In this document: piece after piece, positions 26,404 to 32,504 of the stretch
Layout: each line of letters begins with the position of its first letter
Numbering within the stretch: position 1 is the stretch's first letter
Source: Candidatus Binataceae bacterium
GTDB taxonomy: Bacteria; Desulfobacterota; Binatia; Binatales; Binataceae
Direction of reading: 5' to 3'
NCBI GenBank assembly: GCA_035524375.1
Contig: DATKOZ010000047.1
Span: 113,347-177,346 of the forward strand
Length of the DNA stretch: 64,000 bases
The notes under the pieces: generated by a model
What the model saw: the letters and a program-made list of their open reading frames with translations, nothing else
What the model was told of the DNA's origin: nothing
Databases searched by the model: none
Translations under genes and position numbers: made by a program

Positions 26404-27966
26404 ATGGAAAGGCAGAGAGATTCAGCCGATTTGTGTCGCGCAGGATTGCGCATCGCTAAGACCGCAGTCTTGATCGCAATCGCGTTTATGATGATGGCAG
26501 TTGCCAACCTGGGTGAACTACGAGCACAGTTGGCTGCGGCGCCGTGGCCGATGTTCCTTCACGATCTCGAGCATACGGGCCTTAGTCCTGACACTACCAG
26601 CACCAATACAGGCACTCTAGAATGGAAGTTCGCTACCGGCGATAAGGTGTTCTCCTCGCCTGCAATCGGCGCGGACGGCACTATCTATGTCGGCTCCAAT
26701 GATGGAAATCTCTACGCGATCGCCTCCGGCGGCTCGCAGAAGTGGAAGTTTACGACCGGCAATTTCGTGGAGTCTTCGCCGGCGATCGGGTCTGATGGCA
26801 CGATCTATGTAGGGTCGGAGGACTTCAATCTGTACGCGATCAATCCTGATGGCAGTCAGAAGTGGAAGTTTTTAACCGGCAGTTTGATCCTTAACTCCTC
26901 GCCGGCGATCGGCGCCGACGGAACCGTATACGTTGGCTCGCTTGATTCCAATGTGTACGCAGTCAATCCGGACGGCTCGCAGAAATGGAAATTTGTGACT
27001 CGCGGTCCAGTCACCTCATCGCCGGCAATCGGCGCGGACGGGACGATCTACGTTGGCTCCATCGACCAATATCTGTATGCGATCAATTCCGACGGCTCGC
27101 AGAAGTGGAAATTCCGTACCGGCGCCAGCGTGGATGCCGCGCCGGCAATCGACGCCGACGGAACCATCTACGTTGGATCGGACGATCGCCATCTTTACGC
27201 TCTCAATCCCGACGGCACGGAAAAGTGGGTGTTTGCGGTCGCCTTGGACGGACCATCGTCGCCGGCGATCGGCGGCGATGGCGCCATCTACATTGCCTCG
27301 GCTGATATGAATCTTTACGCGATCAATTCCGACGGGACGCAAAGATGGAAGTTCGCAACCAACGGGTTGGTTAACTCATCACCGGCAATAAGTGCCGACG
27401 GCACGATCTATATTGGCTCAAATGACGCCAATCTTTACGCAATCAACCACGATGGGACACTGAAGTGGATTTTTCCAACCAACGGTGACGTGCAAACTGA
27501 GTCCGCGATCGGGTCCGACGGTACCGTCTATTTCGGATCTTGGGATGGCGATGTTTATGCTGTTGGAGCCGGCGCAGGTCCTCCTCCAACTCGAACCGCG
27601 ACACCGACCGCCACTGTTACGCCTGTCCCGGTGACACTTAAAATCAGCCCGACTACGATTAAGTTTCCGGCCGCAATGGTCAATGCGCCCAGCAAACCAA
27701 AAACCGTCAAAGTCTCCAATCCCAAGGGCAGCAAGAAGAAACCAGGGGCCACAGTGCTGATCGAGATTTCTTCGAGTAATCCGGCGGTATTCGGCGAGAC
27801 CAACACCTGTGCGCCAAGTTTGCCTTCCGGAGATGATTGTACGATTTCAGTGACGTTCACTCCGAACTCGGCGATCTCACAGACCGGATCGCTGACAATT
27901 ACCGACAATGCGAACGGGAGTCCGCAGGAAGTAAGACTGAGCGGTACGGGAAAGGTTTCAAAATAG
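26404..27966 (+). CDS. Secreted PQQ-like 8-bladed beta-propeller protein with Pro/Thr linker and C-terminal Ig-like (choice-of-anchor-D-like) module
   Basis: Eight repeats of about 40 aa (SSPAIGADGTIYVGS.D.NLYAIN.DGSQKWKF.TG). Linker PPPTRTATPTATVTPVP. C-terminal VTLKISP..KFP...SKPK.VKVSNPKGSKKKPG...CTISVTFTP....G.LTITDNANGSPQ.V.LSGTGK. Confidence 0.75.
   Translation: MERQRDSADLCRAGLRIAKTAVLIAIAFMMMAVANLGELRAQLAAAPWPMFLHDLEHTGLSPDTTSTNTGTLEWKFATGDKVFSSPAIGADGTIYVGSNDGNLYAIASGGSQKWKFTTGNFVESSPAIGSDGTIYVGSEDFNLYAINPDGSQKWKFLTGSLILNSSPAIGADGTVYVGSLDSNVYAVNPDGSQKWKFVTRGPVTSSPAIGADGTIYVGSIDQYLYAINSDGSQKWKFRTGASVDAAPAIDADGTIYVGSDDRHLYALNPDGTEKWVFAVALDGPSSPAIGGDGAIYIASADMNLYAINSDGTQRWKFATNGLVNSSPAISADGTIYIGSNDANLYAINHDGTLKWIFPTNGDVQTESAIGSDGTVYFGSWDGDVYAVGAGAGPPPTRTATPTATVTPVPVTLKISPTTIKFPAAMVNAPSKPKTVKVSNPKGSKKKPGATVLIEISSSNPAVFGETNTCAPSLPSGDDCTISVTFTPNSAISQTGSLTITDNANGSPQEVRLSGTGKVSK
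26600..27550. repeat. Tandem approximately 120-nt DNA repeats encoding the propeller blades
   Basis: Recurring strings such as ggctcgcagaagtggaagtt, tcgccggcgatcgg and atctacgttggctc. These generate many spurious alternative-frame ORFs in the track. Confidence 0.6.
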
Positions 27967-28271
27967 GACCAGCGCAGCGACCTTCCCGGCTAGGTCACTC
28001 AATTCTCGCTCCTCTATAAGGGCTTGAAATGCACGCGTGTGCTTGCGATTTGCGATCGCGCAATGACCCCGAAGATTTGCCCAATGGCGCGAATCGCAAG
28101 AAATCGGCGAACTTGATCGAAGTGCGGATTGACTGCGTACATCCGCGAGCCGGTCGATAATCCGCCTGGATCCGGCAATAAACTGACCGAAGCAGGCGCA
28201 TTTTCAGTCGCGTCCAAACGTAAGCTGGGCGCGGACGGATGCGTAGCACCTTCTCCGCCCCAGCGGTGCCG

Positions 28272-31200: not shown

Positions 31201-31649
31201 GAGTAAATCGTGTTCGCGGACGCGCCCGGATAACCATTGGGGCAGTTTGGGGGAGACGCCACTTGTTTCCAAGAGCCAAGGATATAGCTGCCGGTGAAGT
31301 CGGGCGTTAGCGTCCACCAAGCAACATTGGTCAGGTCGGCATCCTGAGCTAGCACGCGCCCGTCGGTGAGCAAATATACGCCGCCAACTTTGAATGGAGG
31401 CTCATTAAGCAGCAATCCCCAAGTGCCTGAGGTTGCCCCAGGAGCTTTTGAGATCGGATGCGATGGACGTGGCGGTACGGACGATTGTGCGGGTATCCGC
31501 GTGCCGTGAGAATTTACACGCGCGCGGCGATGGGGCGAGACCTGACGTATCGATTGCGCGTCCAAGATATGCGGCAGAGTCATGACGACAGTCAGGACAA
31601 CTGCCAGCGCGGTTGCCGGATAGAAAGGTCCGGTTAAGACCTTGGTCAT
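28272..31649 (-). CDS. Giant secreted protein: galactose-oxidase-like Kelch propeller + E-set domain, 6 NHL repeats, Pro/Thr linker, C-terminal Ig-like module shared with the PQQ-propeller protein
   Basis: Kelch-like blades (LPDGRFIMVGG, LPDGTLMV, LRPDGTVFVTG, LPNGQVLFTDG), then TITGTQFNG...ITNNRTGNVFFARSHNHS (galactose-oxidase C-terminal-like). Six NHL repeats (LY[VI]AD..NNRVLE[YF]). PT-rich linker, and the same C-terminal module as 26404-27966. Start placed at MTKVL (31649) to give a signal-peptide-like leader. Confidence 0.7.
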   Translation of the reverse strand: MTKVLTGPFYPATALAVVLTVVMTLPHILDAQSIRQVSPHRRARVNSHGTRIPAQSSVPPRPSHPISKAPGATSGTWGLLLNEPPFKVGGVYLLTDGRVLAQDADLTNVAWWTLTPDFTGSYILGSWKQVASPPNCPNGYPGASANTIYSPLYYASAVLPDGRFIMVGGEYDYNYDYVNNDGKDEVWTDQGAIYDPVADNWTCIAPPTGWNQIGDAQSVVLPDGTLMVAHYSDNQVATLNASTNPPTFNAPFTPAGKTADYQNDEEGWTLLPDGTVLTQEIFNSNDPTETPALTYNPFTQEWSSAGIAPDPLVLISLGGTTYDEIGPSVLRPDGTVFVTGATGIYDIYDSIGDSWSSGSLFGQVSGQQLLAVDAPATLLPSGNVLVDVSPVYSPPSEFFEFDGSGLTIVDRPDNADLDASFQGRLLTLPNGQVLFTDGSNKVEIYMPTGSPDPSWAPTITNAPAVVVAGDGNYTITGTQFNGLSQAVGYGDDYGAATNYPLVQITNNRTGNVFFARSHNHSTMGVATGFTPVSTEFDVSWVTDIGPSMLRVIANGIASDPVPVNVTAKSTDKMADRVLGQLDFVSNLAGSGPTGMSQPFSVAVDSVGHLYVSDFLNNRVLGYLSAASFTNGEAADLVLGQPDFSSTACDDGTLAGDLGGVGPDSLCGSWAVAVDGSNNLYVTDSFTARVLEYIAPFAGCASFPCVGPPASRVLGQGGSFTGSLCNFGGTSADSLCFPEGVAVDNGGRLYIADEGNNRVLEYDNPLSSQTANRVFGQGGDFSTRLCNFDTGGGNPTTDDLCGAEGVTVDGNGHLYIADGDVNNRVLEFDNPLASTTADRVFGQNGDFNTRACGAVSSAGSLCDPVGLEVDSGGHLYVADVGDSRVLEFDTPLTDQNASRVYGQGGDFSSRVCSNGVQGPAPSAGGLCEPTGVAVDNSGNLYVADTLNNRVLAYDQALATPTLSPTATPSPTATISPTLTSSPTPTQTATRTATTTPTATVTITATPTPTAVPVTLKISPVAPKTLKFPKTTVGTASKPKPVTVSNPKGSKKNPGVAVLIERIVAAPGWFTQINNCPVAPTTLAPGGSCTISVTYRPSAPTTQAGTLTITDNANGSPQTVPLSGTGK

Positions 31650-32504
31650 CAGGATCAGCGCACAATTATGCCAGCGATTGCAACCGCCACTTTCCCGCTC
31701 CATCGTATAATTTCTCCAAATGCGCGGAAGATGACAGTGCCTCGAGACGCGCTAAATCGCCACGCACAGTATCAAAAAGGTAGTTTAAAGTAAAATCGAC
31801 GTGATGTTAGTCAAATGCGCTTAACTCGGGCGCAATCTGAATCAAGCTGACCTTTCCCACGGTGGCTGAGCGAGATCGGGTGGGTCGAATCGCAGACCGA
31901 GATGAGTCGCAACCGGGATGGGTAGCCTGTGCCTCAGGCGTGAATATGACTGAGACGAAGTCCACGGCCCGGCGTATCGTACAGCTGTCCCGCAAAGTCC
32001 CATCTGGGCGGACATGCAGCTGTGTGGCTAAATAGCCAACCAAACCTACGCCTAATCTTGCGGCTGACCTGGCTTGGGAAAAACTGTACCTGCGAACCTA
32101 GTGAGAAAGGTAGAACATGAGGGTCCAAGGAATGACGAAGCGACGATACAAAACGGAACAGATCGCAATAATACTGCTGTAGGGCACTGCAATCTTATCA
32201 ATCACGAGTACAAGGCTCTGATGCGGCAGTATTCGGTGACGAATTGGAAGTTTCCGCCATTCTCCCTTGCGTGGATAGCGCAGGATCGTGCGGCGTGCCA
32301 AATTCCGGTCCCACGCGCTTGGTCGGCGCCGTTGCGATCAGTTTATCGTTCGGTGACAAGAATCATTGAAAGGTACGGACTTGGACGATTGGCGCCGATC
32401 AGGGAAAATCCGTCGGTGCTAGAATTCCGAATAATCTGTGATAGCTGGTAAGTTCCAACGGGGCGGCATCATTCGATTTGGCCCATCCGGGGACGTTCGG
32501 AAAG

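Follow-up and report, generated by a model that had tools for sequence, protein, structure and literature searches.

A basic C-terminal choice-of-anchor-D-type module shared by predicted exported proteins with unrelated heads in Binatia

Two facing genes with a common C-terminal domain

The 64,000-nucleotide stretch of DNA analysed here, referred to as the window, comes from a Candidatus Binataceae bacterium (GenBank assembly GCA_035524375.1, contig DATKOZ010000047.1, positions 113,347 to 177,346 of the forward strand). Two open reading frames (ORFs) of the window, ORF A and ORF B, face each other and encode predicted exported proteins with unrelated heads, each of which ends in a Pro/Thr-rich (PT) linker followed by a small, basic, immunoglobulin-like (Ig-like) domain. 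This terminal domain, called the module below, is the subject of the present analysis. Binatia are abundant, uncultured soil bacteria, and we know of nothing on how they display or retain their exported proteins. The two genes and their parts are as follows (window coordinates; aa, amino acids; pI, isoelectric point).

26404..27966, plus strand: ORF A, 520 aa (from the ORF list), made up of a signal peptide, an 8-blade propeller of the PQQ_2/BamB type, a short PT linker and the basic C-terminal module
26404..26526, plus strand: aa 1-41 of ORF A, by eye a putative Sec signal peptide; its hydrophobic core is TAVLIAIAFMMMAVA and its candidate cleavage site LRA|Q
26581..27573, plus strand: eight blades of about 40 aa in ORF A, SSPAIGxDGTIYVGSxDxxLYAxNxDGxxKWxF, placed by motif scan at aa 91, 131, 172, 212, 252, 292, 332 and 372
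27574..27624, plus strand: Pro/Thr linker of ORF A, about 17 aa, PPPTRTATPTATVTP
27625..27963, plus strand: basic ASH/choice-of-anchor-D module of ORF A, aa 408-520, 113 aa, pI 9.6, ending ...GTGKVSK
27967..28271, no strand: gap of 305 bp between the facing stop codons of ORF A and ORF B
28272..31703, minus strand: ORF B, 1143 aa, in which a signal peptide is followed by a head of kelch/galactose-oxidase fold, an NHL propeller of six blades, a PT linker and the basic C-terminal module
28275..28622, minus strand: basic ASH/choice-of-anchor-D module of ORF B, aa 1028-1143, 116 aa, pI 10.3, net charge +10, ending GTGK-stop
28623..28778, minus strand: Pro/Thr/Ser/Ala linker of ORF B, aa 976-1027, 52 aa
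28779..29918, minus strand: aa 596-975, the second head of ORF B, built of six NHL repeats that contain one Cys pair apiece; Pfam NHL PF01436, 117.4 bits (cut-off 20)
29934..31427, minus strand: aa 93-590, head 1 of ORF B, a kelch-type propeller of seven blades followed by an Ig-like domain, together with the galactose oxidase/GlxA fold
31557..31703, minus strand: aa 1-49 of ORF B, by eye a putative signal peptide with the candidate cleavage site LDA|Q

The convergent layout and the 305-bp gap, both reported in a first-pass annotation of this DNA, are borne out by the ORF coordinates. The label 'giant' that it gave to both proteins is an overstatement for the 520-aa ORF A, and its length of 1125 aa for ORF B matches an internal start at Met19; counted from the first ATG, which has a GGAGA about 11 nt upstream, the protein has 1143 aa. 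No terminator-like site was found in the gap by a simple scan. The exact sequences of both proteins are also present on the 135-kb ENA metagenome contig k141_2501535, and orthologues of ORF A read SHA|Q or SYA|Q at the place of its putative cleavage site.

The relationship between the two C-termini is clear. The sole significant segment in a BLASTP comparison of the two proteins joins ORF A 408-517 to ORF B 1028-1143, with 70 of 116 positions identical (60%, E=3e-32), and the corresponding DNA is about 70% identical. The similarity judged earlier by eye at 55-60% is therefore well within significance, and the PT-rich linkers before both modules are likewise confirmed. When either module was compared with the whole window by tblastn, four places were recovered, namely the two modules and two weaker copies in another ORF:

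12838..14166, plus strand: separate protein with choice-of-anchor-D domains at 12901-13218 and 13225-13542 and a choice-of-anchor-X motif (NF012200 81.3 bits, NF041940 35 bits)

The first-pass annotation had noticed the same fold signature twice in this third protein, and two choice_anch_D domains (81 bits) are indeed found there, though with 27-37% identity to the module and a pI of 4.1-4.2. Judged by sequence, these two domains are generic, acidic members of the same superfamily and lie outside the basic terminal subfamily to which the modules of ORF A and ORF B belong. NCBIfam detects no C-terminal anchor on the protein. The mechanical ORF that starts at 12721 runs through tRNA-Ala(CGC) at 12727-12802, and the real protein starts later.

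Profile and fold searches agree with the earlier view that the module belongs with the ASH and choice-of-anchor-D domains. ORF B passes the cut-off of NF012200 (choice_anch_D, NCBIfam; 52.0 bits against 45), and ORF A, to which it is so similar, falls just below it (41.1 bits, E=2e-10); ten Binatia relatives score 45.6-94.8 bits. With the Pfam ASH family (PF15780, cut-off 27) the scores are 33.9 bits for ORF B and a marginal 26.8 bits for ORF A, and Cep192_D4 of Pfam also matches the modules. An AlphaFold model built on 24 sequences of the subfamily (pLDDT, predicted local distance difference test score, 84) resembles the PapD-like/ASH Ig domains of HYDIN (2e6j) and CEP192 (7ptb), with template modelling (TM) scores of 0.68-0.72. 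Central-pair proteins also match, and there are weaker matches (TM 0.57-0.63) to the Ig domains of VesB and VesC, two Vibrio proteases. On this model, the module is a PapD-like Ig fold of the ASH/choice-of-anchor-D family. The family itself is already known, and NCBI names close homologues after it ('choice-of-anchor D domain-containing protein').

The superfamily is very common, and a profile of the subfamily reaches 40,759 representative proteins at E<=1e-3, its top matches being 830-7,259 aa long and containing the domain in as many as 61 tandem copies. The module has the signature C...GxxC...F.P...G.L.I.DN...Q.V.L.G.G in common with the choice-of-anchor D/ASH/HYDIN-VesB-CFA65-like Ig domains. 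Generic choice-of-anchor D members are acidic and internal, however, often in long tandem arrays and with other domains or anchors after them, whereas the Binatia subfamily is single and terminal, with a pI of about 10, a Lys-rich B-C loop (NPKGxKKHPG) and a terminal Lys. The suspicion that the module might be simply a common bacterial Ig-like domain thus holds for the superfamily, but not for its basic, strictly terminal subfamily, which has a pattern of its own. By its name, a choice-of-anchor D domain should be followed by a distinct anchor or sorting signal at the C-terminus; here nothing of the kind follows, and the proteins stop 0-10 aa after the domain.

Distribution, charge and last residue of the terminal subfamily

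A scan with the module alignment, run on one genome per GTDB species, gave 486 confirmed stretches, and 80 loci were kept. The best 62 of these (49-68% identity) all come from records with Binatus, Binataceae, 'uncultured delta proteobacterium' or 'Deltaproteobacteria bacterium palsa_1089' in their titles; Candidatus Binataceae and Binatus are also the NCBI names on homologues of the ORF B head. Orthologues of the PQQ head of ORF A are 57-60% identical to it in 'delta proteobacterium' metagenome-assembled genomes (MAGs), compared to 58% in a labelled Binatus MAG, and because of this similarity the 'delta proteobacterium' MAGs are treated as the same lineage. On the evidence of the scan, then, the basic terminal subfamily is confined to Binatia-type MAGs.

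The architecture is constant across these loci. The module is terminal in 62 of 62, with a stop codon 0-10 residues past the final G-x-G, and it is preceded in every case by an (Ala/Pro-Thr)n linker whose length ranges from 4 to several hundred residues. From rank 63 onward the matches come from Acidobacteriota and Actinomycetes, with 42-47% identity, and the domain is internal in proteins of 880-2586 aa; the single shorter non-Binatia case is a 439-aa ORF cut by a contig end.

Many copies can be present in one genome, and we put the number of proteins that end in the module at 16-20 or more per genome. At least 16 of the 80 loci kept belong to the MAG CAVRUK01, some of them with a further copy, and two other MAGs have 8 each, these counts being lower bounds. 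A second or third copy, mostly in tandem, lies within 12 kb in 15 of 64 sequences (63 loci and the window), which is again a lower bound; about half of these extra copies are at the subfamily level (60-67% identity) and the remainder are generic (33-48%). A search with the module protein returned mostly short fragments, in which the gene calls are broken within a linker or by the edge of a contig; it was of little use for the architecture, which came from the genome scan. In long-read MAGs (loci L003, 3179-6417, L006 and L045) the module is sometimes called as a separate gene of 110-140 aa that starts inside an (AT)n linker, and in L003 a module protein is called as 909 aa plus 138 aa. Such separate calls are probably frameshift errors in the repetitive linker and not stand-alone modules. 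Two NHL-module genes of one MAG (L015, CAVRUK010000005.1, and L016, CAVRUK010000006.1) have identical N- and C-terminal sequences and linkers of 91 versus 29 aa, which suggests either a recent duplication with a change in linker length or an assembly artefact.

The earlier view of a module grafted onto unrelated heads is amply supported by the related MAGs, in which at least nine unrelated head groups carry the subfamily module. Apart from the PQQ-type propeller of ORF A and the kelch-like head of ORF B, they include NHL propellers, either single or double, FTVTNTNDSGSGSLRAAI heads with choice-of-anchor Q (beta-helix-like), GloVer tandem repeats, a GH25 muramidase, DUF7948 plus SBBP, and a head of about 290 aa, among others. 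Families of the choice-of-anchor-Q and GloVer type are named for the varied C-terminal anchors that they precede elsewhere. Most heads are propellers or beta-helix-like domains without a recognised catalytic family. The clearest recognisable catalytic head among 20 representatives scanned is the GH25 muramidase (100.8 bits) at L027, 4318-6345 on the plus strand, which is followed by an AT/PT linker and the basic terminal module. Weaker matches of this sort are a sub-threshold, esterase-like one at L065 (FusH, 70.7 bits versus 999) and a glycosylhydrolase family match in the head at L043 (36.6 bits versus a curated cut-off of 175).

The modules differ sharply in charge from the heads that they follow. 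Their median pI is 9.95 (range 9.1-10.5) and their mean net charge +7.8, against a median pI of 4.2 for the heads. The positive charge is concentrated in two places, the first 45 residues (KIKPKxLKFPKT, SKPKxVKVSNPKGxKKHPG) and the extreme end. Two Cys are invariant in the module, as would fit an extracytoplasmic domain.

Conservation of the module is uniform. When pairs of modules were sorted by same or different genome and same or different head class, mean identity was 74.6-75.9% in all four categories. Concerted evolution within genomes and modules that track their heads are both rejected by these values, which fit one shared constraint on all copies, for example a common ligand or partner. 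The two modules of the window are 62% identical to each other and 70-73% identical to modules in other genomes, so that local gene conversion or recent duplication between them can likewise be set aside.

Of 83 proteins, 77 have Lys as their last residue, three have His, two Arg and one Glu (basic in 82 of 83), compared to a background of 7.7% terminal Lys in neighbouring ORFs of the same loci. The 83 proteins are not phylogenetically independent, and the informative cases are those with variable tails. Tails of 3-10 residues follow the final G-x-G in 15 proteins, as in GTGKVSK (ORF A), GTGTSPKSK, GTGNAPK and GTGIAGMK, and 14 of the 15 end in Lys, arguing that the terminal position itself is kept. 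The five His or Arg endings are all in PQQ-head orthologues, and the general statement is therefore a basic last residue that is nearly always Lys.

Possible roles of the module

The reading that we favour, with somewhat less than even confidence, is that the module serves as a common means of anchoring or retention by binding an anionic polymer that belongs to the envelope or matrix of the producing cell. Both proteins would be exported by the Sec pathway as an acidic beta-propeller head joined by an extended Thr/Pro/Ala linker to the small, strongly basic Ig-like domain. The lysine-rich face of this domain (KIKPKxLKFPK, SKPK, NPKGxKKHPG and the terminal K) would then bind the polymer non-covalently, the candidates being lipopolysaccharide, exopolysaccharide and peptidoglycan, and the linker would hold the head at a distance. 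This reading is suggested by the reversal of charge, which is specific to the terminal subfamily, and by the position of the module, which takes the place of the anchors found on choice-of-anchor-type heads in other phyla, in line with how those families are named. A single ligand for so many heads would also fit a 'self' surface best.

Several points weigh against it. The superfamily occurs mostly as a structural repeat in giant adhesin-like proteins, so that its role may be purely structural, and the module has no known ligand or binding partner. The proteins could end up either in the periplasm or outside the outer membrane. No conserved neighbour of the module genes was found; what recurs beside them is further module genes, or genes that share synteny with the PQQ-head orthologues. 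Finally, the 'delta proteobacterium' MAGs are assigned to Binatia from record titles and orthologue identity and not from phylogeny.

A different account of the strictly terminal position is that the module is a secretion or sorting signal, read by a dedicated outer-membrane export or attachment machinery and perhaps cleaved, like the cargo domain of the type IX secretion system (T9SS). In Bacteroidota, exported T9SS cargo proteins of many unrelated kinds likewise end in a small beta-sandwich, their C-terminal sorting domain, and several properties of the module could be explained in this way: the many unrelated cargo-like heads in one genome, the lineage-restricted subfamily, the uniform, head-independent conservation and the conserved last residue. 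Nevertheless, this account seems unlikely. The module gives no sequence match to the T9SS models, has no evident T9SS context and is more conserved and more basic than the T9SS domain; its 75% identity over the whole domain is, to our knowledge, far above what known sorting domains keep. No machinery gene was found to recur beside the module genes, and no such system is described for Binatia in the literature searched. The NCBIfam searches were also negative for a sorting signal. ORF A and ORF B match no T9SS sorting-domain model at E<=0.01 and no other sorting-signal model, and ten relatives have no T9SS sorting-domain match on the terminal module at E<=1e-4; PEP-CTERM, LPXTG, GlyGly-CTERM and T9SS signals can thus be rejected for the terminal module of all twelve proteins. 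Two relatives give sub-threshold matches in their heads, one at L065 (aa 114-187) far below threshold to a T9SS-dependent M6-like inactivated metalloprotease (25 bits versus 600) and one at L035 to rhombotarget A (32.5 bits versus a cut-off of 295).

The basic charge could also be directed outward. In this case the module would act like a carbohydrate-binding module (CBM) and attach its protein to an anionic polymer of the environment or of other cells, rather than to the producer. Secreted enzymes that degrade polysaccharides classically consist of a head, a PT or AT linker and a small beta-sandwich at the end, and the GH25 muramidase head, together with the weak, sub-cut-off glycosylhydrolase match noted above, would fit such a role. 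The head-linker-module layout on many different heads is likewise that of the PT-linker plus CBM or dockerin systems of Cellulomonas and Clostridia. Those systems, however, use another fold family and, unlike them, the module has no known cohesin-like partner and most of its heads are propellers or beta-helix-like domains that are not recognisable as enzymes. One ligand for so many heads is also easier to explain by the producer's own surface, and binding to an outside target is thus rated as distinctly unlikely, below the sorting signal. It is more doubtful still that the modules have no special role and are ordinary paralogous Ig-like spacers, similar by recent ancestry or local gene conversion. 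The huge superfamily, made up mostly of structural repeats, and the adjacency of the two genes would be in keeping with this idea. The window modules are closer to modules of other genomes than to each other, however, which excludes local conversion, and the constant terminal position, the conserved basic residues and terminal Lys, and a charge opposite to that of generic members also speak against it.

The furthest-reaching proposal, and in our estimate the least probable, is a covalent link. By analogy with Braun's lipoprotein and OutB, the terminal domain might dock on the anionic sacculus and an L,D-transpeptidase of the YkuD type might then cross-link the terminal Lys, if exposed in the periplasm, to meso-DAP of a stem peptide. 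In OutB the terminal Lys of the Lpp box is necessary and sufficient, and the box can tether a periplasmic reporter (bioRxiv 10.1101/2024.09.03.610988). The Lpp box of Braun's lipoprotein and OutB, whose C-terminal Lys is cross-linked to peptidoglycan by L,D-transpeptidases, resembles the module in this last residue, but has no sequence similarity to it, and the PQQ-head orthologues that end in His or Arg argue against a covalent Lys link as the universal mechanism. If such a tether did operate, Binatia would have a set of linker-tethered periplasmic propellers, beta-helix proteins and a muramidase, and these would be the first case outside the Gammaproteobacteria of a large family of covalent, Lpp-style peptidoglycan cargo defined by a domain. 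In a more general form of this improbable proposal, the module would be a phylum-specific anchor signal not recognised before.

Because it closes dozens of exported proteins that are otherwise unrelated, the module has the appearance of an anchoring or targeting tag particular to this lineage and made from a widespread type of domain. Searches of a limited library for Binatia or Binatota, for choice-of-anchor D and for ASH or PapD-like bacterial C-terminal domains found no literature on the basic terminal subfamily or on its terminal Lys. The module provides a concrete, testable candidate for a new anchoring signal, in the form of a small domain that could be expressed for ligand-binding tests, as well as a handle for listing the surface and periplasmic proteome of Binatia from sequence alone.

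Heads of the two proteins and surrounding genes

The head of ORF A is the 8-blade PQQ-like propeller proposed earlier, with eight repeats by motif scan and Pfam scores above cut-off for PF13570 (193.7 bits) and PF13360 (138.7 bits). It shares PQQ_2-type blades with BamB but scores 122.9 bits against the equivalog cut-off of 285.2 for BamB (TIGR03300), and 48 bits against 480 for PQQ-dependent dehydrogenase (TIGR03075). ORF A is therefore neither protein by these models and passes only the repeat-level Pfam families; unlike BamB and the PQQ_2-repeat propellers, it also carries the linker and the basic module.

ORF B has two heads. The six NHL repeats of the second are as the first-pass annotation described them, a DUF1929-like part that it also listed has no match in Pfam, and its galactose-oxidase-like head is supported with respect to fold. 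The AlphaFold model of head 1 (pLDDT 85; pTM, predicted TM score, 0.89) finds a bacterial galactose oxidase (9g43), GlxA and fungal oxidases of family AA5 by Foldseek, the best matches being 9g43, 5lqi/4unm, 5c86, 8tx5 and 9n3u (E 2e-16 to 1e-12), with TM about 0.4-0.5 and 12-16% identity. A direct phmmer search of head 1 against PDB sequences gave no match, and the link to AA5 came only from the fold search and from a family profile, which matches the Colletotrichum oxidase 6ryv at E=1.5e-6. Pfam gives weak kelch matches and Glyoxal_oxid_N at 19.0 bits against a cut-off of 37.5. Head 1 and the AA5 copper-radical oxidases have in common a 7-blade kelch propeller and a C-terminal Ig-like domain.

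The active site is a different matter. In the alignment with 6ryv, the invariant Tyr79 of head 1 falls on the Tyr272 equivalent ('YQ(S/T)S') and Tyr97 of an invariant GGEY on the Trp290 equivalent ('GG(S/A)(W/Y)'); hhalign with a hand-entered galactose oxidase (GalOx) sequence gave the same local alignment. The Tyr272 position thus keeps its tyrosine and the Trp290 position an aromatic residue, but the thioether Cys is not kept: no invariant or nearly invariant Cys that could form a Cys-Tyr cofactor is present among 33 members of the head-1 family. Cys228 of Fusarium GalOx, the residue that forms the Cys-Tyr thioether, is aligned with Lys or Ala in a low-confidence alignment to the hand-entered sequence. 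In the global hhalign alignment with this GalOx sequence, also of low confidence, His496 falls on a Gln in a variable column, His581 in a YGDDxQ loop, and Tyr495 on a Phe (Tyr in the consensus), so that both His ligands apparently have no counterpart. An active galactose oxidase is therefore unlikely. Our reading is that head 1 has an AA5-like fold and is not a copper-radical oxidase. The head-1 family has many invariant acidic residues (E96, D141, E191, E192, E250, D299 and E326) and may be an uncharacterised family of enzymes or lectins. Its apparent loss of the copper-radical site matters for the mining of metagenomes for AA5-like oxidases.

The heads had also been called unusual for bacteria, which does not hold for the kelch-like one. 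Homologues of head 1 number more than 7,500 in Acidobacteriota of soil and in Binatia and are poorly covered by Pfam; many are stand-alone proteins of about 477 aa labelled Terriglobales/Acidobacteriia, and the Binatia versions are fused to choice-of-anchor D. An NHL domain occurs in none of the 120 best head-1 matches, and the kelch-like and NHL heads are separate in Binatia loci, so it is only the fusion of kelch and NHL heads that looks rare.

Two further features of the window concern the cell envelope:

16690-25881, plus strand: resistance-nodulation-division (RND) efflux operon with an OEP outer-membrane factor, a HlyD-type adaptor and two tandem AcrB-type pumps (1068 and 1050 aa)
41084-42232, minus strand: LysM-YkuD L,D-transpeptidase gene with the active-site motif THGCIR

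ORF A directly follows the RND operon on the same strand, and the operon points to a diderm envelope; a TetR-like gene lies upstream of ORF B. The LysM-YkuD gene is about 10 kb away from the module genes, and such genes are common. The 5' end of its mechanical ORF overlaps tRNA-Leu(CAA) (42146-42231, plus strand), and its real start is therefore probably further in. Three plus-strand ORFs of 446, 945 and 286 aa (14135-15475, 33168-36005 and 36002-36862) have no Pfam match at the thresholds used; the first of these directly follows the choice-of-anchor D/X protein and has no NCBIfam match either. The window also contains a SurA_N/rotamase (PpiD/SurA-like) periplasmic chaperone gene (6753-8663, plus strand) and a catalase-peroxidase-type gene (42494-44695, plus strand; Pfam peroxidase 247 bits in two stretches), both of which are ordinary chromosomal context.

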